From Candidatus Dasytiphilus stammeri (GTDB taxonomy: Bacteria; Pseudomonadota; Gammaproteobacteria; Enterobacterales; Enterobacteriaceae), in NCBI GenBank assembly GCA_041945105.1, contig CP145880.1, positions 378,982 through 442,981 on the forward strand: a stretch of 64,000 bases of DNA, read 5' to 3'. The position numbers were made by a program, and so were the translations under genes. This document shows positions 43,686 through 56,066 of this stretch, in pieces. Each line of letters starts with the position of its first letter. The first letter of the stretch is position 1. The notes under the pieces are model-generated. The model was not told the origin of the DNA and did not search any database. It saw only the letters and a program-made list of their open reading frames with translations.

Positions 43686-46708
<3,023 letters not shown>

Positions 46709-46760
46709 AAATTTTCCTATAAAAAATAGATTTATTCGTTGATCTTACTTACTAAACTGA

Positions 46761-47984
46761 CTAATATTCCGCCCATTTATAACCGTTTCTATTATCTATT
46801 AATATACCAATTCGATTACCTATTTTTACTCCTTTTTTAACGTAACTGTCTTTAAAAACAGACAATTTAAAAATAGCCATATCTGAAAATAAAGTATTAG
46901 CATTTCTGGTCACAAAAAAAATCTTGCTTCGGGTATCATATTGCATTGCAGTTTTCAGAACTTTAGTAGTTGGTATTTCAGTCTCAATGATTGTGCCAAA
47001 TTCCGAAAAATAATCCAATGGATATATTACTTTTTTTACCGGAATATTATTTGTTATTAGGTGATGATACATAAAAGTTTCATTTTGAAATTGCATTAAA
47101 TTTAGTCCAGATTCTTTTCCACAAAATAACCCAAAAAAATATGGATTTTGTCGGGTATAGATTTTATCTATCTTCACTTCATAACTATAAGTTTTATCAG
47201 AATAGTATCCCTTAAATTCACCAAATGGACCTTCAGGGATTTTTTTTCCCGAAATCTGTCCATAGAGCACTATTTCGCTTGTGATAGGAACTGCTGGATA
47301 AGGTTTTTCCTGAAATAATTTGATTTCGTCTTTTGCTAAAGCATTAGCAAATAAATAACTATCAATGATATCTGGAATTTTACTAGCAGCACTAATATAA
47401 GTAGCTATAGGTCCCCCATTAAAAAGGCTAATATAAACCTGAGGTTGATTTTGTAAATGATTCACAAGGATTCTATAGGCATCGGTTCTTGGATCTATAA
47501 AAATTGCCAGAGTATTTTCATTTTTAATCTCTCCTCGATAAAATCCTAAATTACTGCAATGGTTACTATCTACGATACAAAAAACAAATGAAGTTAAATA
47601 ACGTCCAGCATCTTTAGGTTGATACTTGAGAAAAGGTAGATCTAAAAGAGAAAATGAAGATAACAAGAACTCATTTTTTATTCTTTGGAATTTATTGTTA
47701 TTTATATGATGCTGATATGAAGAGAGGATTTTTTTTATGCGTCGATAAAATTCTGGAAGATAATTATCTTCTGTCATATCTAGGCCTTTTAAAATGATCG
47801 TACGTTTTAACAAATTATCGACATGAGGAATATTGGATTTACATAAAATTTCCTTGAAAATAGTTATTGGATAATTCGTTAAGTTGGAGTATTGTTTTTT
47901 TAAATACTGAGACACCTCAAGTTCTGGTGATAAAGGCATCTTCACTATTTGTACATCGTCGGCTTGTAAAAGTAAATTTCTCAT
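46761..47984 (-). CDS. UbiD-family (prenylated-FMN-dependent) decarboxylase, short form. Candidate 7-carboxy-7-deazapurine nucleotide decarboxylase.
   Basis: 407 aa. DAGRYLTS..SNLGFYRG corresponds to the UbiD N-x-G-x-Y-R metal/prFMN region. PEGPFGEFKGYY corresponds to the catalytic E-x-x-x-x-E loop (E. coli UbiD has PEGPYGDHTGYY). Otherwise it is very unlike E. coli UbiD and about 90 aa shorter. Confidence 0.72.
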   Translation of the reverse strand: MRNLLLQADDVQIVKMPLSPELEVSQYLKKQYSNLTNYPITIFKEILCKSNIPHVDNLLKRTIILKGLDMTEDNYLPEFYRRIKKILSSYQHHINNNKFQRIKNEFLLSSFSLLDLPFLKYQPKDAGRYLTSFVFCIVDSNHCSNLGFYRGEIKNENTLAIFIDPRTDAYRILVNHLQNQPQVYISLFNGGPIATYISAASKIPDIIDSYLFANALAKDEIKLFQEKPYPAVPITSEIVLYGQISGKKIPEGPFGEFKGYYSDKTYSYEVKIDKIYTRQNPYFFGLFCGKESGLNLMQFQNETFMYHHLITNNIPVKKVIYPLDYFSEFGTIIETEIPTTKVLKTAMQYDTRSKIFFVTRNANTLFSDMAIFKLSVFKDSYVKKGVKIGNRIGILIDNRNGYKWAEY

Positions 47985-47990
47985 CTGATT

Positions 47991-48467
47991 CTATCTATTT
48001 ATTATCTCTGTCTCCCAAGGAAATCTAATCCATTCTTGTTCTTCTTTAGCATAATAATTAACCAATTTATTAATTTGATTAATATCCCCATTTTGAGAAT
48101 TAAAAAATAGACTAGCTACAAAAATTGAACGATTTGGTAGAGAGAATTTATTTCTAATAAATTTAATTGTTTCTCCACTACCTACAATATCATCAATAAC
48201 AATCCAGTTCAGATACTTTTTAGTCATTAAACCAATATCTATTATTTGAGGGGAAACGGTTTCTGAATTAATCTCATCAGTTTTATTTCGTTTAATACAA
48301 ATAGATGTGAGTTCTCTAACTCCTAGATTATGTGCAATAATTACTGCTGGGATCCAACCGGATCGAGAAATTCCAATAATGCAATCATATGGTATCTTTT
48401 GTTCTCGTATAATTTTAGCTATATTTAGAGATAATTTTTCGATTTTTTTCCATGATACTTTAATCAT
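47991..48467 (-). CDS. Type I phosphoribosyltransferase, Gpt/XGPRT-like. Candidate 7-carboxy-7-deazaguanine phosphoribosyltransferase.
   Basis: 158 aa. IIGISRSGWIPA, the PRPP loop WIVIDDIVGSGETI and the C-terminal WIRFPWE parallel E. coli Gpt (IIAVSRGGLVPG, FIVIDDLVDTGGT, WIEQPWD). Overall it is divergent. Confidence 0.75.
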   Translation of the reverse strand: MIKVSWKKIEKLSLNIAKIIREQKIPYDCIIGISRSGWIPAVIIAHNLGVRELTSICIKRNKTDEINSETVSPQIIDIGLMTKKYLNWIVIDDIVGSGETIKFIRNKFSLPNRSIFVASLFFNSQNGDINQINKLVNYYAKEEQEWIRFPWETEIINR

Positions 48468-49611
48468 TCTTTTGAATTACCTCTTTTTTGTAATCAATAG
48501 GTGGAGTACCATATATGCTCAAGGCATGAGGTACATTTTCGTGATGTGTTTGTGAGGAAACTTTAATAAATTCATGGTTCTTACGAAGTTCATTATAGTT
48601 AATAGCTCCACTATAACTAAACCCCGATTGAATTCCTCCTATTAATTGATAAAGATATTCGCGCAAAGGACCAATATATTCGAAACAAGCTTCCACACCT
48701 TCAGGAACATAACGAATATATTCTTCTTTTTGAATCTTTTGTCCACGTAAACGTTGAAGTTCTAATTTAGTTCCAAAAGTTACAAATCCTTTAGTAGCTT
48801 TATACTTTTTTCCCTCAATTTCTATTAATTGAGCCGCACTTTCTGTCGTTCCTGCTAGCATTCTCCCGAGCATTACACATGATGCACCTGCTGCTAATGC
48901 TTTAACTATATCACCTGAACTTTTAATTCCTCCATCAGCAATAATACTTACATTGCATTTTTTTGCGGCCTCAACGCAATCCATAATCGCTGTTAGTTGA
49001 GGAATTCCTGCCCCGGTTACAGATCTTGTGGTACATACACTACCTGGTCCTATTCCAACTTTTATTATGCTGGCACCTGCATGAGCTAAATCAATTACTC
49101 CTTGCGCTGTAGCTACATTTCCAGCAATGATAGGAATTTCGGGAAAATTATTATTTAACTTTTTAATGGCACGAATCACTTGTGTAGAATGACCATGAGC
49201 TACATCAACAGTTATAAAATCAGCACCAGACTGAATTAATTGTGTAGCACGATCAAAGTAATCGTCAATGATTCCTACCGCAGCACCGACTTTTAAATAT
49301 CCATGATTATCCAAAGTTGGCAAGAAATCTTTTTCAGATTGAATATTTAAAAGAGATTTTACTGAACGTACATGACTGATTTGTGTTTCAATAGTACACA
49401 TTCGATGGATGATCCCAAGTCCTCCCATTCTAGCCATTTCACTAGCCATAGAATCTTCAGTACACCATTGAGTATTAGCTGATATAATAGGAATATTTAA
49501 CTGTCCGATTCGATTTAAATTCACACTGAGATTGATTTCTTTCCTACTATAAATATTAGTTAGTTTTGGTATCAGTAAGACATCATCAAATACATAGCTA
49601 TTTCTGAACAT
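48460..49611 (-). CDS. IMP dehydrogenase/GMP reductase-family enzyme lacking the CBS (Bateman) pair. Candidate GMP-reductase-like reductive deaminase.
   Basis: The track ORF runs to 49686, but AAGGAG lies 7 nt before the Met at 49611 (MFRNSYVFDDVLLIPK, the canonical family N-terminus). Catalytic Cys loop GIGPGSVCTTR, IADGGIKSSGDIVKALAAGA and YVPEGVE are present. Only about 25 aa lie where IMPDH carries its CBS pair. Confidence 0.8.
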   Translation of the reverse strand: MFRNSYVFDDVLLIPKLTNIYSRKEINLSVNLNRIGQLNIPIISANTQWCTEDSMASEMARMGGLGIIHRMCTIETQISHVRSVKSLLNIQSEKDFLPTLDNHGYLKVGAAVGIIDDYFDRATQLIQSGADFITVDVAHGHSTQVIRAIKKLNNNFPEIPIIAGNVATAQGVIDLAHAGASIIKVGIGPGSVCTTRSVTGAGIPQLTAIMDCVEAAKKCNVSIIADGGIKSSGDIVKALAAGASCVMLGRMLAGTTESAAQLIEIEGKKYKATKGFVTFGTKLELQRLRGQKIQKEEYIRYVPEGVEACFEYIGPLREYLYQLIGGIQSGFSYSGAINYNELRKNHEFIKVSSQTHHENVPHALSIYGTPPIDYKKEVIQKND

Positions 49612-50128
49612 TTGAAATCTCCTTAAAGTAAGTAGGATATTCTGCCCAACAATTAGGCGTTTCATAAACTCTAACTGAGTCAACACTTAACCTATTTATT
49701 TGATTCAATTGATTAGATAATTTTAATGATAATATTTCATACCAATGTTTTGCTAAGTATTCTGCAGTAGGTGAAAAAGGTACCAGATAAATTTTCATTT
49801 TTTCTGGATTATATATAAGTGAAGCAGTTTGAGACTGTTTAACTTGACGTGCTGAATGAATAATATCTAAGATTTTTATCAGATATTCGTCTTCAGCGTC
49901 TACAATCATTGCATGATCACAATTACTATCAATACACTCGTTCATAACCTCTTTTATAACACCAAAATCCATCACCATTCCTGTCTGAGATCCATCGTGA
50001 ATTAATTGGTTTGATGAAAGAGTAACAAGAATTGTATATCTATGTCCGTGTAAATTACGACATTTGGAAGTATGTGCTTTAATTCTATGACCCGCATCAA
50101 TTTCTATTTTTCGGTTGATTTTATACAT
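49598..50128 (-). CDS. queD: 6-carboxy-5,6,7,8-tetrahydropterin synthase (QueD/PTPS family), long form
   Basis: 176 aa. The catalytic Cys and zinc histidines lie in HRIKAHTSKCRNLHGHRY. A PTAEYLA (PTxE) motif is present. Its stop lies inside the next gene's start region (14-nt overlap). Confidence 0.8.
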   Translation of the reverse strand: MYKINRKIEIDAGHRIKAHTSKCRNLHGHRYTILVTLSSNQLIHDGSQTGMVMDFGVIKEVMNECIDSNCDHAMIVDAEDEYLIKILDIIHSARQVKQSQTASLIYNPEKMKIYLVPFSPTAEYLAKHWYEILSLKLSNQLNQINRLSVDSVRVYETPNCWAEYPTYFKEISNVQK

Positions 50129-50137
50129 AATTTTTCC

Positions 50138-50740
50138 TTATTGAGAGTAATGTACTCCATGCCCCCAAGGCAAAGATACTGATTTGTAGAATTCATCTTT
50201 TTTAAGCAAGTCTTGCTCAAACAGACCAGAAAAATAAAGAGTTGTCATAAATGCATTAGGTTTATAAGCACCACGTGTACATAAACAATTATGTCTAGCA
50301 CGGATTATTACACCTACTCCTTTAGGTTTTAAAACCTCATCAAGTGTTTGTCCAATTTGAGAAGTTAATCTTTCTTGAATCTGTAATCTTTTAGAAAACA
50401 CATCTACAACACGTGCTAGTTTTGAGAGTCCAACCACTCTCCTATTTGGTAGATATCCTACAACAGCACTTCCTACGATAGGTGCAAGATGATGTTCACA
50501 TGTCGACTCGAAATGAATATTTTGAAGAAGTACTAAATTATTGTATCCTTCAACTTCTTCAAAAAATTTTTCAAGAATTAAATATGGATCTTTAGAATAA
50601 CCTTCAGTTTGATTTTTTAAAGATTTTAGAAATCGATCGGGGGTGTCAATAAGTCCTTGTCTCGTAACATCCTCACCTAGATAGCTTAAAATATCTAGGA
50701 CTGCTTGACGTGCTTTCTCTTTCTTAAGCATGTTTGACAT
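50138..50740 (-). CDS. folE: GTP cyclohydrolase I (FolE type IA, short non-enterobacterial form)
   Basis: 200 aa. GLIDTPDRFLKSL, FESTCEHHLAPIVG, VVGLSKLARVV and QIQERLTSQI motifs. It resembles the about 190-aa FolE form rather than the 222-aa E. coli FolE (STCEHHFVTIDG). Confidence 0.85.
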   Translation of the reverse strand: MSNMLKKEKARQAVLDILSYLGEDVTRQGLIDTPDRFLKSLKNQTEGYSKDPYLILEKFFEEVEGYNNLVLLQNIHFESTCEHHLAPIVGSAVVGYLPNRRVVGLSKLARVVDVFSKRLQIQERLTSQIGQTLDEVLKPKGVGVIIRARHNCLCTRGAYKPNAFMTTLYFSGLFEQDLLKKDEFYKSVSLPWGHGVHYSQ

Positions 50741-50756
50741 AAGATTTTCCTTATCC

Positions 50757-51446
50757 TTATGGAAGATTCAGTTCTTTATGTAATTGAATATTTAATGTTC
50801 GACCATATTTCATTGCTACTTTTATACATGTCTTTATATTTTTAAGATTACTTTCTTTATCATAATCATCTCTAGGCATGACATATATAGGCTTTCCTAG
50901 AGGAGGTCGAAATAACTTTAGGGGTTTTTCTTTAAATTGAGTACAATAAATAGGAAGCCCATCATTATCATCAATTTCTCCATGTGCAATTACATATTTA
51001 TAATGAGTGATTATTTCTACCGTTCGAGGATGTAATTCTGGAGTTTTAGGGCTACATACTATTGTCAAACTTTTATTCATTTTAATTGGACGATATATAG
51101 TGCCATTGGTTTCTATTTGTACTTTTAATTTATTTTCTATAAGATAATCTATTAGTGGCACTATATTTTGGCGAAAAGGTTCTCCTCCAGTAATAACTAC
51201 TAACTTTGGAGTAGGAGAATCCAAATGACTGATTTGATGAAAAATATCCATGGAATTAAGATTCCATTTAAATGATTCAAATTGTGTATCACACCAATAA
51301 CACTTCAAATTACAACCTGAAAGTCGTACAAAAGTGGCCGGACAACCTGTATAAGGTCCTTCACCCTGAATAGTACGAAAAATCTTCTCAACCCATAGCT
51401 TTTCACTGTCAGGAGCTTTCTTTCGTGCAGGATTTTGACCAAACAT
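50757..51446 (-). CDS. queE: 7-carboxy-7-deazaguanine synthase (radical SAM QueE)
   Basis: IFRTIQGEGPYTGCPATFVRLSGCNLKCYWCDT is the QueE signature with a CxxxCxxC cluster. GAGGAAG lies upstream. It is the first gene of the operon. Confidence 0.85.
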   Translation of the reverse strand: MFGQNPARKKAPDSEKLWVEKIFRTIQGEGPYTGCPATFVRLSGCNLKCYWCDTQFESFKWNLNSMDIFHQISHLDSPTPKLVVITGGEPFRQNIVPLIDYLIENKLKVQIETNGTIYRPIKMNKSLTIVCSPKTPELHPRTVEIITHYKYVIAHGEIDDNDGLPIYCTQFKEKPLKLFRPPLGKPIYVMPRDDYDKESNLKNIKTCIKVAMKYGRTLNIQLHKELNLP

Positions 51447-51694
51447 ATCATCTTCCTCAGGATCAAATTTTAAAAAAATAGAATTAAATTAATACAGTTA
51501 GATAAATTTGGCTTGGTTAAGCTTGTAGATTGCCTATGTACAATTTTATTTATAAATTAGACATTAGATAATAATCTGGAAGATACAACGTTAGATGTTT
51601 TGTGATTTATATATAACAAAAAGATTATAAATTAACCAATATCATAAGGAAATGGAAAAAGTATCAAGAGCTTTTGATAGAGAACTAAATAGCT
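51447..51694 (-). promoter_or_regulatory. Promoter/regulatory spacer between ypdB and queE, carrying five copies of an ATCTAA-like hexamer
   Basis: 248-nt non-coding gap. Plus-strand TTAGAT occurs at 51498, 51564 and 51591, with variants GTAGAT at 51525 and TTAGAC at 51557. No convincing -35/-10 pair could be singled out in this AT-rich stretch. Confidence 0.35.
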
Positions 51695-52432
51695 CTAAAG
51701 ACGCATGAGTTGCCGAAATTCTTTTACTTTACTGCGACTGACCGGAACTTTGATTTTTTGTTCTCGAAGCTGCAAAAGATAAGTATGATTAAACCATGGT
51801 TCAATTTCTATAATATGACGCATATTCACACAATATGAACGATGACATCGAAAAAAAAACCTCAAGGGTAACTGCATACAAAATTTACTAATACTAATAG
51901 GCATTATATATTCTCCACCATAGAGTGTATAAATAAAAGTCATTTTTTTATGAGCTTCTGCATAACAGATATCACTAATGTTAGTCACAATAAAACGTTC
52001 ATTTTTCATCAAATTCATAGTCTTATATTTTGAATAAAAATGAAATTGTTTATGAACTAATTCTTCTTGTTGTTCCCAAAAAATTTCTAATTTTTGCAAC
52101 ATTATAGCAATACGTGTTTCCTGTAAAGGTTTAAGAATATAATCAAATGCTTCTATTTCAAAAGCTTCAACAGCATGTTCTTGATAAGCACTAATAAATA
52201 CAATGAGTGGTTTGTTGGAAAACTTATTAATATTTTGAGCTAATAACATTCCATCTAAAATAGGAAGACGAATATCTATAAAAATCACATCAACTTTATT
52301 ATGTTGAAGATATTTTAATACATCTAGACCATCATCAAAAATTTTATCAATTATAATATTACTATGTTGACCTATTAGCCAATTTAATTCTTGTTGAGCG
52401 GAAATTTCGTCTTCAACGATGATACCTTTCAC
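51695..52432 (-). CDS. ypdB: LytTR-family response regulator YpdB
   Basis: MKGIIVEDEISAQQELNWLI..FDDGLDVLKYLQHNKVDVIFIDIRLP..HAVEAFEIEAFDYILKP..FFRCHRSYCVN..IEPWFN..VPVSRSKVKEFRQLM tracks E. coli YpdB almost motif for motif. The receiver Asp is retained. Confidence 0.85.
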   Translation of the reverse strand: MKGIIVEDEISAQQELNWLIGQHSNIIIDKIFDDGLDVLKYLQHNKVDVIFIDIRLPILDGMLLAQNINKFSNKPLIVFISAYQEHAVEAFEIEAFDYILKPLQETRIAIMLQKLEIFWEQQEELVHKQFHFYSKYKTMNLMKNERFIVTNISDICYAEAHKKMTFIYTLYGGEYIMPISISKFCMQLPLRFFFRCHRSYCVNMRHIIEIEPWFNHTYLLQLREQKIKVPVSRSKVKEFRQLMRL

Positions 52433-52438
52433 GACATT

Positions 52439-53566
52439 TTAATTATTAATAAAAAAATACATTTCAGTTCCCGGCCAATGTTTATGTTTAGGTTTACTAA
52501 CATGTAATCCGTTGCCATATATTAATTTAATACGTTGATGAACATTTAATAAGCCCATTCGGTTATTAGAATGAGGACTTTCATTACGTCTTATTCTATC
52601 TATCACTTCCTCATTGATGCCATATCCAGTATTACTTACTGATACCATAACTTTATTATTACGAGTTTTTTTAATACTAAGAATAATAGTAGTACCTTTA
52701 CTCCGTTGAATACCATGATAAATGGCATTTTCCACTAATGGTTGAATTAACAAATTAGGAATAAAACACACAATATCTTTATCTATTTTGTAGATTACAG
52801 TAAGTTTTTTACCAAATCGTATTTTTTCAATAGCTATATAATTTTTAATATAACATAGCTCTTTTTTAAGATCTATAAGCTCATATCCGTTTCTTTCAAC
52901 ATGATAACGTAAATAGTATGATAAATTAATTGTAAGCTTTCGGGCAATTTGTGGATTTAATCTTATTAATGAATATATAGTATTTAATGTATTAAAAAGA
53001 AAATGAGGATTAATCATTCTTTGTAAAGCTTGTAATTTTGCTTGATGATTTATTATACGCAAATCATTAAGACGGGATATCTCAATATGACTAGAGATCA
53101 TTTGGGAGAAAAAAATGGCGATTTTTTTTAAAAAAGATCTTTCTCCTATAGAAAGATAATAATTTTTATAGCAAACTTTCAATGTTCCTATAATACCCTC
53201 TTGTTCCCATATTGGAATTATTAGTACTAAATTCACTTGTGGAAACGTATCGGGGTGAATATGATTTCGAATTATAATAGCGCCATATTGTAGAACTTTA
53301 GCTGTTATATAGCCGATACTTCTATCATTAGAATAATATGTCCTACCTACACCAGAATATGCTAATATCTGTTGAGTATTAGTAATCGCAACTACATCGG
53401 CAATTAAATCAATCTGGAGAATCTTACAAATTTTATACAAGGTTTTATTATCTGCATTACGGAACCGTGGTAAAATATTACTATAAACCTGTAAAAAACC
53501 GTAAGGTTTTGTAGATTCATTTTTATGTAACGATCGAATAATTCGTATATACATAGCTTCAAACAT
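52439..53566 (-). CDS. ypdA: LytS/YpdA-type sensor histidine kinase lacking the N-terminal 5TM sensor domain (GAF + His_kinase + HATPase_c only)
   Basis: 375 aa, versus about 565 aa recalled for E. coli YpdA. No hydrophobic N-terminal segments. It has a GAF-like region, the phospho-acceptor box INPHFLFNTLN and the N-box LIQPLVENAIYHG. Only 51 nt separate its start from tRNA-Arg. Confidence 0.75.
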   Translation of the reverse strand: MFEAMYIRIIRSLHKNESTKPYGFLQVYSNILPRFRNADNKTLYKICKILQIDLIADVVAITNTQQILAYSGVGRTYYSNDRSIGYITAKVLQYGAIIIRNHIHPDTFPQVNLVLIIPIWEQEGIIGTLKVCYKNYYLSIGERSFLKKIAIFFSQMISSHIEISRLNDLRIINHQAKLQALQRMINPHFLFNTLNTIYSLIRLNPQIARKLTINLSYYLRYHVERNGYELIDLKKELCYIKNYIAIEKIRFGKKLTVIYKIDKDIVCFIPNLLIQPLVENAIYHGIQRSKGTTIILSIKKTRNNKVMVSVSNTGYGINEEVIDRIRRNESPHSNNRMGLLNVHQRIKLIYGNGLHVSKPKHKHWPGTEMYFFINN

Positions 53567-53617
53567 ATAATAAACATCGCTGTTCGGTCAAAATGATGAT
53601 TGATAATTTTACTGTTT

Positions 53618-53690
53618 GTTCCTTTAGTTAAAATGGATATAATAAGCCTCTCCTAAGGGCTAGTTATAGGTTCGAATCCTATAGGGAACA
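53618..53690 (+). tRNA. argW: tRNA-Arg (CCU)
   Basis: Acceptor GTTCCTT/AGGGAAC, anticodon stem AGCCT/GGGCT, loop CTCCTAA, T-loop TTCGAAT. Closely resembles E. coli argW. CCA is not encoded. Confidence 0.85.
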
Positions 53691-53750
53691 TTAATCAATC
53701 TATCCGATTAATGAATTAATGAAAATAAAATATATGTGGTTTGTATTTTA

Positions 53751-54580
53751 ATGACAGAATCAATCATACATGTATCATTGATAATAATCGTTTTACTCTC
53801 ACGCCAGCCATGACTACAAAATTATTCGTATTCTGGTTATAATCCAATTATTAATTATAGAAATCTTTCTTGCATGTTTTTTGATTGGATCAGAAATAGG
53901 CACTATTGTGATAAATAGTATGGCAAAATTTTTTATGGCATTGATGAGAAGGTACTGATTTTGTAGTTTGATGTAAAAAATATGGATTAGTATTTTGTTT
54001 CTTAAATGTGATCCAAGAATATTTATTTCAGCCCTAATTGGAATTCTACAATATATTCGGATTTTACCTATTTTCTTTTACATCTTTAGTACTTAATATG
54101 TTTAGCTTTTTTATTATTTTATCACTACTAATTAATCCATATAAAGTACCAAATGAGGAATATCTACTCACAAGTAATTTGGTAAATAATACAAGCTTTT
54201 TTGAAATGTTGGCAGAATATATTCTAACTGGCCGCCATTGTAACTGCAATGTTGATTGGATTTATTTCTTTAAGAACTGCTCTTAACATGCTTTTTGTAA
54301 CTATATTTGGAATTATAAGTTAGTTAATGAATTTATAGCTATGCACGCACTAGCAAAAAAATAGGAGATCAACTGTCTACACTACGTGTAGGAATATTAT
54401 CCGTATTTTTAGTTTCGTTTGCTAATTGGTCTTCTATCGGTATCGTTTCAGGAAATGTAAAAGTATTTAATAAACAACAAGGAGATAGATATTGTTGCTC
54501 GATTTGGATTTCAACTCCTTTACAGCTCTACTTGAGTAAGTATATTATCTGCTTCTGTAACCGGATTGTTCTCTATCTAA
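53751..54580 (+). pseudogene. nupC: Decayed nucleoside permease NupC (CNT family)
   Basis: Fragments in shifting frames match E. coli NupC in order. They are [125 protein letters not shown] and IVARFGFQLLYSST(stop)VSILSASVTGLF. Multiple stops, frameshifts and at least two internal deletions leave about 830 nt of an expected 1.2 kb. Confidence 0.85.
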
Positions 54581-54599
54581 TAAATAAATAGATTGGGAG

Positions 54600-54675
54600 T
54601 GGTGGAGCTAAGCGGATTTGAACCGCTGACCTATTGCATGCCATGCAAGTGCTCTACCAATTGAGCTATAGCCCC
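54600..54675 (-). tRNA. alaX: tRNA-Ala (GGC)
   Basis: The reverse complement GGGGCTATAGCTCAATTGGTAGAGCACTTGCATGGCATGCAA..GCTCCACCA is near-identical to E. coli alaW/alaX. CCA is encoded. It lies beside gltX as in E. coli. Confidence 0.9.
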
Positions 54676-56066
54676 TTTTTTGATAAACATTTCAAGCTTT
54701 TTTCAAGACGAGTGATAACTATTTGTTTTTTCATGGCATGCAGAATCATATCAATAGCTGGTGAGGTTTGAGATCCTATGACAGCTATACGCAATGGCAT
54801 ACTCACTTCACGAAGATTTAGATCTAGTTCCTGAGCAGAACTTTCGATAGCATCGTATATATTATTCACAGTCCAATCGGTGATTATTGATAATTTATTA
54901 CGTACCATTTCTAATACTTTAATATATTTTGGATGAATCTCTTGATAATTGGTTATGTTAAAATCTTCATATAAATAGCGACTAGAAACTATTATTTCTT
55001 TTAAAGTTTTACATCTTTCACGAAATAATTTTACCAACTGAATTACAGTGGGTCCCGAACTAATATCAATATTTTCATGATCAATATGCCATTTTAATTG
55101 AGTAGCCACATAATTTATTGGTAATGTCTTGATATAGTGATGATTTAACCATAAAAGCTTTTTAATATTTAATGTACTAGCAGACTTACTGACTTTTTCC
55201 AAAGTAAATAAAGATTTCATTTCTTCAATTGTAAAAATTTCTTGATTTCCACAGGACCATCCCAACCTCACCAAATAATTAAGCAGTGCTTCCGGTAAAT
55301 AACCCTTCTCACGATATTGCATAATACTAAGTGTACCTTGACGTTTAGACAGTCTTTTTCCATGTTCATCTAAAATCATGGGAACATGGGCATAAGCAGG
55401 AATCTCAGCTCCTACTGCTTTTAAAATGTTAATTTGACGGAGTGTATTGCTAATATGATCTTCACCCCGAATTACATGTGTGATCTGCATATCCCAATCA
55501 TCGATAGCTACACAAAAATTGTATGTAGGTAAACCATTAGAACGACGAATAACAAGATCATCAAGTTCGTAATTATTTACTCTAATCATTCCTCGGATAA
55601 GATCTTTAAAAGAACTAATTCCTTGACGAGGATTACAAAATCGTACTACATAAGGAGCATTATTGTGCTTATTATGAGGATAATATTCACGACAAAAACC
55701 ATCGTAACGCGGTTTTTTACTTTCTGCCATCTGTGACATTCGTAATTTTTCCAACCTATTTTTTGTACAATAGCATTTATAGGCAGTTCCAGTTTTTAAC
55801 ATATCCTCAATTATCTCATTATAACGTGTAATGCGTGTGGTTTGGTAAAAAGGACCCAGATCCCAATCTAATTTCAACCATTTCATACTATCTATAATTG
55901 CATCAATAGCTAGTTGACTAGATCTTTCACGATCGGTGTCTTCAATACGTAATATAAATTCTCCTCCCTGGTGATGAGCAAATAACCAGGAATAAAGAGC
56001 TGTACGAATATTCCCAAAATGGAGATAACCAGTTGGACTAGGTGCGAAGCGCGTTTTAACTTTCAT
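54666..56066 (-). CDS. gltX: Glutamyl-tRNA synthetase
   Basis: [24 protein letters not shown] (HIGH region) and KLSKR (KMSKS). 466 aa. Its last 10 nt overlap the 5' end of tRNA-Ala. Confidence 0.95.

Follow-up and report, generated by a model that had tools for sequence, protein, structure and literature searches.

The sensor kinase PyrS (YpdA) and the response regulator PyrR (YpdB) of Escherichia coli form a low-affinity pyruvate-responsive system of the LytS/LytTR type, encoded by adjacent genes. A second E. coli system, BtsS/BtsR (YehU/YehT), has the same family and domain plan and acts as a high-affinity pyruvate receptor. BtsS has seven transmembrane helices, and the residues of its pyruvate pocket are located in helices III-V (PMC10653868). 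A membrane input domain is the characteristic feature of all LytS-type kinases, and BtsS prefers Mn2+-ATP (PMC10653868). The experimentally defined sites of PyrR (YpdB) in E. coli consist of two GGCATTTCAT boxes with 11 nt between them (PMC4847170). Here we describe a PyrS/PyrR-type pair in a stretch of 64,000 nucleotides from the beetle endosymbiont Candidatus Dasytiphilus stammeri (contig CP145880.1, positions 378,982 to 442,981), hereafter the window, by whose first letter all coordinates are counted. Our reading, to which we assign a probability of roughly 0.6, is that this is the vertically inherited PyrS/PyrR system of the enterobacterial ancestor in the midst of a stepwise erosion, and that PyrR would drive the deazapurine operon lying downstream. 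The genes are already catalogued, as KEGG orthologues only, in a supplementary table of PMC11191362, whose text discusses neither the kinase nor the regulator nor the operon and describes the symbionts as tyrosine providers. The truncation of the kinase, its stepwise clade-wise loss, the decay in this strain and the promoter array are without earlier description in the literature searched.

The kinase gene (52439-53566, minus strand) is followed by the regulator gene (51695-52432, minus strand; 245 residues, GTG start, intact), which starts 6 nt past the kinase stop codon; both open reading frames lie where a first-pass annotation of the window had placed them. The kinase shows 47% identity to E. 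coli PyrS versus 25% to BtsS. Its closest relatives are five proteins named "Candidatus Dasytiphilus stammeri" (371-387 residues), and the next-best matches are full-length YpdA-type kinases of about 565 residues from Mangrovibacter, Serratia and Kluyvera (47-49% identity). Because of these identities, the YpdA type of the best free-living matches, the adjoining pyrR orthologue (64% identity to PyrR, 29% to BtsR) and the common flanking genes, sequence comparison identifies the pair as the orthologue of PyrS/PyrR and not of BtsS/BtsR, which is only a paralogue. For the flanking genes, the E. coli region from lpxP to fryA was compared directly; the order gltX, alaW-type tRNA, nupC, argW-type tRNA, which we take to be that of E. 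coli, rests partly on presumed positions.

As in E. coli, GAF-like, DHp (with NPHFLFN) and CA regions follow one another in the kinase, and the regulator consists of REC and LytTR domains. The YpdA-type identity of the kinase and the retention of the phospho-acceptor and N-box motifs, both noted at first sight, were borne out by Pfam and by alignment. The DHp/His_kinase domain (PF06580, residues 176-255, E = 6.4e-25; 52802-53041, minus strand) contains the phospho-acceptor H188 in NPHFLFN and is the most constrained part of the protein, and the HATPase_c catalytic domain (residues 273-371; 52454-52750, minus strand) has an intact N-box (N280) and G2 box (GLLNV). What the initial description of the ATPase had overlooked is an exchange in the G1 box: the codon AAT at 52631-52633 (minus strand) encodes N312 in place of the Asp that corresponds to D495 of E. 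coli PyrS, so that the motif reads SNTGYG in the window kinase versus RDTGYG in the others. The Asp is kept by the other four Dasytiphilus kinases and by 37/37 free-living homologues aligned. The exchange is private to the window strain and is seen in three assemblies. ATP binding of this kinase is probably impaired through D312N.

N-terminal to these domains, the kinase differs strongly from PyrS, lacking residues 1-184 of the E. coli protein. Its first residue aligns opposite PyrS G185, inside the last membrane helix. No Pfam match to the 5TM-5TMR_LYT domain (PF07694) was obtained for the kinase, and none of its 19-residue windows reached the hydrophobicity of a membrane helix, whereas residues 3-196 of E. 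coli PyrS do contain hydrophobic windows. In searches by tblastn with the N-termini of PyrS and BtsS, neither the window nor four related genomes yielded a remnant; past the tRNA-Arg(CCU) gene, the stretch 53692-54600 is a nupC pseudogene on the other strand. The loss of the whole membrane sensor without a remnant, as originally proposed, was thus upheld, and the kinase is predicted to be soluble. It had been described as a protein of 375 residues, which is its length from the first ATG; the start codon common to related strains is M5 (53554), which gives 371. The statement that it begins at the linker/GAF region is correct in that the degenerate GAF-like region (53072-53458, minus strand; approximately residues 37-165) aligns with the GAF of PyrS, but not in terms of a Pfam GAF score, which is absent for the window kinase and for that of the sister strain L001, is 17.6 bits for strain L005 (below the cut-off) and 32.2 bits for E. 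coli PyrS. In a model of moderate confidence calculated with AlphaFold2 (AF2; predicted local distance difference test score, pLDDT, 66), the kinase is predicted to comprise an alpha/beta sensor-like domain, a DHp hairpin and a CA domain, the GAF-like region adopting an alpha/beta fold with pLDDT 67-82. Structures similar to the model include soluble sensor-DHp-CA kinases and the kinase domain of GanS, the only solved structure among close relatives.

The upstream boundary of the deletion in all Dasytiphilus clades is tRNA-Arg(CCU) (53617-53691, plus strand), which is divergent from the kinase gene. The distance from the first kinase ATG to this tRNA gene is 50 nt, not 51 as first given, and the reading frame is closed 5' of the kinase by an in-frame TGA at 53590-53588. 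The region 51400-54700 was reproduced without differences by contigs from three runs of one sample (50-96x word depth). Since these contigs are identical, the locus structure is not an artefact of assembly, and no upstream segment encoding transmembrane helices, which an assembly correction might have brought back, emerged. In the interval 53552-53616 (minus strand), the kinase start lies 50-62 nt from the divergent tRNA-Arg gene and has no recognisable Shine-Dalgarno sequence. With a TTGACC/TATTAT-like pair as promoter, transcription would begin almost at M5, and the mRNA might thus be nearly leaderless.

The regulator had been called an almost motif-for-motif YpdB with intact receiver Asp and LytTR domain, and this description stands. 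Both Response_reg and LytTR (PF04397, E = 9.3e-28) were matched in Pfam. D8, D53 and K101 are invariant across eight aligned Dasytiphilus regulators and E. coli, and the LytTR motifs FFRCHRS, EIEPWFN and VPVSRS are invariant among the aligned Dasytiphilus regulators. The ratio of nonsynonymous to synonymous substitution rates (dN/dS) of the regulator is 0.11-0.20, with 0.14 between two Listrus-clade strains without the kinase. In the symbiont of Psilothrix viridicoerulea (L004/L017), it is the regulator and not the kinase that has an excess of nonsynonymous changes on the terminal branch (18 versus 3), and the regulator of this symbiont (L004:11141-11902) carries an N-terminal extension.

For the distribution of both genes, homologous loci were compared in four close strains, four distant strains reached via the UbiD gene and eleven further named genomes. 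In supplementary file 2 of PMC11191362, which covers 20 strains, the sensor kinase (K02478) is present in 6, all of the Dasytes clade, and the regulator (K02477) in 18/20; our own loci agree with both counts. The truncated kinase is carried by isolates Dvir, Dalp, Pvir and Dnig, by CP145876 and by the window. It is missing from the other 14/20 genomes, where the regulator and the operon persist, except for the regulator in Danacea. The regulator directly follows the tRNA in the Dasytastes and Listrus clades, and no kinase remnant was detectable in the loci of these clades. In the Danacea symbionts the regulator is gone too, and the operon is retained. All strains examined contain the upstream tRNA-Arg(CCU) and the genes queE, folE, queD and those for the GMP-reductase-like enzyme, the phosphoribosyltransferase and UbiD, and wherever the regulator is kept it is located directly upstream of the operon; queE is present in every strain compared in supplementary file 2 of PMC11191362. 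In a neighbour-joining tree built from five proteins with E. coli as the root, the Dasytastes-type strain is basal and the kinase-bearing strains form one derived clade (100% bootstrap), which implies at least two independent losses of the kinase and a single loss of the regulator. The kinase is therefore dispensable in the genus. It is also the sole sensor kinase annotated in any Dasytiphilus genome, the whole supplementary table holding one "sensor" entry only, and no BtsS/BtsR partner system is annotated. According to the same file ackA is absent and pta is intact in a single strain, so that acetyl phosphate cannot replace the kinase. The E. coli PyrR target yhjX is annotated in none of the Dasytiphilus strains of that file.

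The nupC gene next to the locus is patchily distributed: Dvir/CP145876, Pvir, Dnig and the Dasytastes clade have an intact copy, and Dalp has lost it by deletion; supplementary file 2 of PMC11191362 has it absent from the D. aeratus and D. alpigradus symbionts. By elimination among the strains of that file, the window probably belongs to the symbiont of Dasytes aeratus. The window copy (53803-54577, plus strand), between tRNA-Ala and tRNA-Arg, is degraded to a pseudogene with fragments in several frames.

Selection on the kinase was measured by NG86/YN00 distances and by parsimony counts. Within the Dasytes clade, dN/dS of the kinase (YN00) is 0.17-0.32, the highest or near-highest value of 15-16 local genes per strain pair, with cmk comparable. 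Among its domains dN/dS increases from DHp over CA to GAF (0.07-0.31 for DHp, 0.12-0.72 for the GAF-like region), opposite to free-living bacteria, for which GAF has been reported to be the domain conserved best (PMC5552118). For the window versus its sister strain L001, dN/dS of the GAF-like region is close to 1, and the corresponding ratio of proportions (pN/pS) for DHp is 0.17 (p = 6e-4). The kinase reading frame is open in all Dasytes-clade strains. About 5.5% of random point changes in the gene would create a stop codon, and the neutral probability of the frame staying open over the synonymous tree length of the clade is below 1e-13; this improbability argues that the truncated kinase was functional in the Dasytes clade. 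By these sequence measures, the truncated kinase is under purifying selection across the clade.

A different picture emerged for the window strain itself. Differences between the window and its sister were polarised by parsimony with the other three strains as outgroups. On the window branch the kinase has 20 nonsynonymous and 4 synonymous codon changes, a nonsynonymous fraction of 0.83 versus 0.79 under neutrality (p = 0.63), and these include R311S and D312N. On the sister branch 10 nonsynonymous and 12 synonymous changes were counted (p = 8e-4 against neutrality), and the other genes pooled have 126 nonsynonymous and 145 synonymous changes on the window branch (Fisher's test versus the kinase, p = 1.4e-4). 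A stricter count, limited to changes private to one strain with the codon identical in the other four, yielded a nonsynonymous-to-synonymous count of 9 to 2 in the window (p = 0.006) and of 12 to 5 in Dalp (p = 0.03); in the remaining three strains the kinase counts were not above those of other genes. The intact reading frame weighs little here, because only about 1.4 stop-creating changes are expected on so short a branch. Most likely, the kinase of the window strain is no longer constrained. The first-pass annotation had held that the kinase is kept under selection and had taken inactivating mutations as the sign of decay in progress: the former applies to the Dasytes clade, whereas the window strain, with a near-neutral branch and D312N, appears to approach the latter. 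The two nupC-less Dasytes-clade strains, the window and Dalp, are the same two that show the nonsynonymous excess in the kinase.

The regulator gene is separated from queE by a spacer of 248 nt and queE is co-oriented with it, both as first annotated. The region was analysed by an architecture scan for three GCAWYTCAY boxes in a 21-bp phase with a -10 hexamer approximately 33 nt past the third box. The E. coli yhjX promoter (PyhjX) has the layout CGTCATTCAT-11-GGCATTTCAT-11-GGCATTTCAT-33-TATGGT. In Serratia, the promoter before an MFS (yhjX-like) gene starting about 730 nt past ypdB reads GGCAACTCAC-11-TGCATTTCAT-11-TGCAACTCAT-33-TATAAT. The window contains GGCAACTCAT-11-GCTATTTAGT-11-AGCTCTTGAT-33-TATAAT, which ranked first among 127,798 positions. 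This candidate PyrR array (51663-51714, minus strand) consists of three 10-nt boxes spaced by 21 bp, with box A at 51714-51705, within the final codons of the regulator reading frame, box B at 51693-51684 and box C at 51672-51663. The TATAAT hexamer at 51624-51629 (minus strand), 33 nt past box C, is invariant in Dasytes-clade strains. No usable -35 element was recognisable upstream of this hexamer, as expected, because the promoter would depend on an activator.

The homologous site is at rank 1 in all loci of the Dasytes and Dasytastes clades (sharing that rank with one other position in two of them), the boxes of the Dasytastes clade being GGCATCTCAT, TGGTTTTGAT and TGCTTTTAAT. Spacers of different clades are not alignable except for the first dozen bases and the -10-like hexamer. 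In Danacea, where the regulator is missing, the array is absent as well. Shuffled windows contained about 1.5 sites of this score per 64 kb; requiring TATAAT as well brought the number down to about 0.1. The codons of box A include CGG and CTC, rare ones that make up 3.7% of Arg and 3.9% of Leu codons, respectively, which suggests that the DNA sequence itself is constrained. In a related strain, one RNA contig of low depth reaches upstream as far as 51610, a little downstream of the predicted transcription start, which is weak evidence for that start. Because the array of three boxes and TATAAT matches the layout of the yhjX promoter and ranks first, PyrR probably drives the tubercidin-type operon via this array. 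A regulatory link between the pair and the downstream operon had already been suspected from their arrangement, and the yhjX-like array now lends it support.

Other candidates were less informative. The exact E. coli YpdB box pair alone, at 14/20 or more matches, was no commoner in the window than in shuffled sequences, and it is the layout of three boxes with TATAAT that discriminates. A preQ1 or other riboswitch in the spacer found no Rfam match at E <= 5, and the alignment fold was weak (-10 kcal/mol). A 21-nt direct repeat of CTTTATC in the spacer was dropped, being not conserved beyond the clade and overlapping a hairpin. A scan for sigma-70 and terminator consensus sequences was uninformative (24 sites versus 23.5 expected).

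Several points weigh against our reading. The scan parameters were set after sight of the Serratia promoter and of the first window match, and the ranking is thus not fully blind. Boxes B and C each have 6/10 consensus matches, and box A is situated within coding sequence. In the Listrus clade the array is degenerate and the regulators are conserved all the same. The array stretch can form a small hairpin, with one compensatory change, and could be a terminator instead. The RNA evidence comes from a few contigs of 2-6x depth in one metatranscriptome of a related strain, whose library may contain DNA, and this data set is too thin to show either co-transcription of the pair and the queE operon or its absence. 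For the kinase, the branch-specific counts are small and polarised by parsimony, and the effect of an Asp-to-Asn exchange in the G1 box is known from other GHKL ATPases and not from a LytS-type kinase.

The probable target operon (44870-51446, minus strand) comprises queE, folE, queD, a GMP-reductase-like gene, a phosphoribosyltransferase gene, a UbiD decarboxylase gene and a fusion of YfbR-like HD and MaeB-type parts. Its enzyme set is that of the tubercidin pathway TubA-F (compared with PMC6112128 and bioRxiv 10.64898/2026.04.15.718813). Like TubA-G of Streptomyces tubercidicus, it combines GTP cyclohydrolase I, CPH4 synthase, radical-SAM CDG synthase, a GMP-reductase-like enzyme, a phosphoribosyltransferase and a UbiD decarboxylase without QueC; queC was searched for, and not found, within the operon. 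Unlike in TubA-G, the last phosphohydrolase is of the YfbR-like HD and not the Nudix type, and the regulator is LytTR and not LuxR. The closest homologues of the operon are from Pseudomonas (50-65% identity) and not from Streptomyces: Pseudomonas mangiferae has the same gene order with the Nudix gene last, and Pseudomonas entomophila has a close queE homologue. No LytTR system was found beside the operon in two free-living loci, that of P. mangiferae and one in a 5.25-Mb assembly; given its absence beside the P. mangiferae operon, the link between regulator and operon appears to be specific to Dasytiphilus.

Some further observations concern individual operon genes. The last gene (44870-46708, minus strand) encodes 612 residues, a YfbR-like HD phosphohydrolase and the N-terminal part of a MaeB-type NADP-malic enzyme without the PTA-like domain. 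Three Dasytes-clade strains have this fusion, Danacea encodes its parts by separate genes, and elsewhere the parts are split or lost; the YfbR-like HD part may stand in for the Nudix enzyme of the Pseudomonas and Streptomyces clusters. The longest open reading frame of the GMP-reductase-like gene (48460-49686, minus strand; GTG start, 408 residues) overlaps queD (49598-50128, minus strand) by 89 nt. In related genomes this gene is called with 383 residues from MFRNSYVFDD (49611), and the long version is probably an artefact of mechanical calling. The gene ubiX, which the UbiD cofactor requires, is present in every strain compared in supplementary file 2 of PMC11191362. In the entries of the same file, at least six Listrus-clade symbionts lack purA or have it flagged as non-functional. 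Since PurA and PurB are required for the final steps to an adenosine analogue, the operon may lead to different end products in different clades.

With respect to other systems, the YpdA of Serratia marcescens is among the closest free-living kinases (approximately 49% identity). In S. marcescens, as proposed for the window, the target lies just past ypdB on the same strand, and a GCAACTCA(T/C) box variant is common to both. Unlike Dasytiphilus, Serratia has a full-length 5TM kinase and a transporter as target, and its boxes are located about 550 nt past ypdB with an intervening gene. The candidate promoter agrees with E. coli PyhjX in its three boxes at 21 bp and the 33-nt gap to the -10 hexamer; E. 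coli PyrR has yhjX as its target, unlike the deazapurine operon probably targeted here. Two metagenomic proteins on 7-8 kb contigs, P0304 (377 residues) and P0344 (387 residues), are Met-starting GAF/His_kinase/HATPase proteins without 5TM and only 31-33% identical to the Dasytiphilus kinase. P0241 of Psychromonas sp. CD1 (446 residues, 44% identical; 1.38-Mb contig) has one N-terminal hydrophobic helix. By eye, its GAF region appears to contain an internal duplication, and it may represent a parallel truncation in a genome that, judged from the 1.38-Mb contig, is possibly reduced. Because soluble LytS-family GAF-kinases seem to be present in metagenomes, the sensorless architecture alone is not unique; however, none of these three proteins is documented as derived from a membrane-bound ancestor with intermediates visible in sister lineages.

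In summary, a deletion extending up to tRNA-Arg(CCU) took the whole membrane input domain and left a soluble GAF-like/DHp/CA protein. This truncated kinase is common to all Dasytes-clade strains, and in the other three clades the kinase has gone wholly. We propose that the regulator is the part that matters: it may bind the three 21-bp-phased boxes around its own stop codon and, when bound, would activate a -10-only promoter and with it the tubercidin-type deazapurine operon. As the E. coli and Serratia yhjX promoters have the matching layout, a horizontally acquired operon seemingly captured an ancestral target promoter of PyrR. The sensorless kinase may formerly have set the phosphorylation of PyrR from the cell interior; it is now dispensable and, in the window strain, probably heading to loss.

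Other explanations have to be weighed against this one. The kinase might be functional in the window strain as a phosphatase or as a binding partner of the regulator, for which DHp and not ATP binding would be needed, so that D312N would mark a shift of function and not decay. Other families do have histidine kinase mutants that are kinase-negative and phosphatase-positive, no domain of this kinase is conserved better than DHp (pN/pS 0.17, p = 6e-4 versus the sister), and the two genes, 6 nt apart, are probably co-translated. Without a kinase or acetyl phosphate, though, there would be little regulator phosphate to remove. Furthermore, 4/20 nonsynonymous changes of the window branch fall into residues 166-262 (linker and DHp), among them K175Q at a position that is invariant in eight other PyrS-type sequences aligned, and the ratio of changes over the whole branch is neutral. 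We regard this explanation as unlikely. The reading of the first-pass annotation, in which a soluble, constitutive or cytoplasm-sensing kinase is still selected in this strain, perhaps responding to pyruvate in a feedback with the malic enzyme, appears quite improbable. It can draw on the truncated frame that is conserved under purifying selection across the Dasytes clade, on a GAF-like fold that is still predicted by AF2, on the lack of any other phosphodonor pathway and on the proposal of GAF as a hub for intracellular stimuli in the LytS family (PMC5552118). It does not fit with the neutral window branch carrying D312N, with a GAF that is the least constrained domain and is without a Pfam score, or with the absence of the kinase from 14/20 genomes. 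The pyruvate idea in particular found no support: the pocket region known from the paralogue BtsS belongs to the helices deleted here (PMC10653868), and strains that have retained the regulator, with or without the kinase, have a malic-enzyme module that is split or lost.

Finally, both genes could be functionless relics, adjacent to a constitutive operon through genome collapse. The operon does persist in Danacea symbionts without either gene, the genes around the pair reflect ancestral synteny brought together through deletion, and the Listrus-clade boxes are degenerate. This explanation is very improbable, however, in view of a regulator that is present in 18/20 genomes with dN/dS of 0.11-0.20 and invariant catalytic and DNA-binding residues, of a box array that ranks first in two clades whose spacers are otherwise not alignable, and of a box A that is maintained by rare codons. 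We thus prefer the erosion of an inherited PyrS/PyrR system whose regulator would still drive the operon. A more far-reaching version is offered tentatively, and as a whole it is doubtful: that a PyrR promoter was captured by a tubercidin-type operon, that PyrR is among the last transcription factors of a 0.45-Mb endosymbiont and controls a potentially toxic nucleoside analogue, that the genus preserves every stage of decay, from the sensorless soluble kinase over the orphan regulator to the loss of the regulator, and that the sensorless kinase was for long a real cytoplasmic input in the Dasytes clade.

Gene regulation is considered almost absent from obligate endosymbionts whose genomes are smaller than 0.5 Mb, with two-component systems among the earliest losses. 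In Dasytiphilus, one two-component system survives. The twenty co-diverging strains provide a rare natural series in which sensor domain, kinase and regulator are lost in turn and the probable target operon is kept. If PyrR drives the operon, a defined DNA site and natural variants, such as Asp/Asn G1 kinases and strains without the kinase or the regulator, would be on hand. The regulator may still control a horizontally acquired pathway for a deazapurine nucleoside, a pathway unmentioned in the published account of the symbionts as tyrosine providers.

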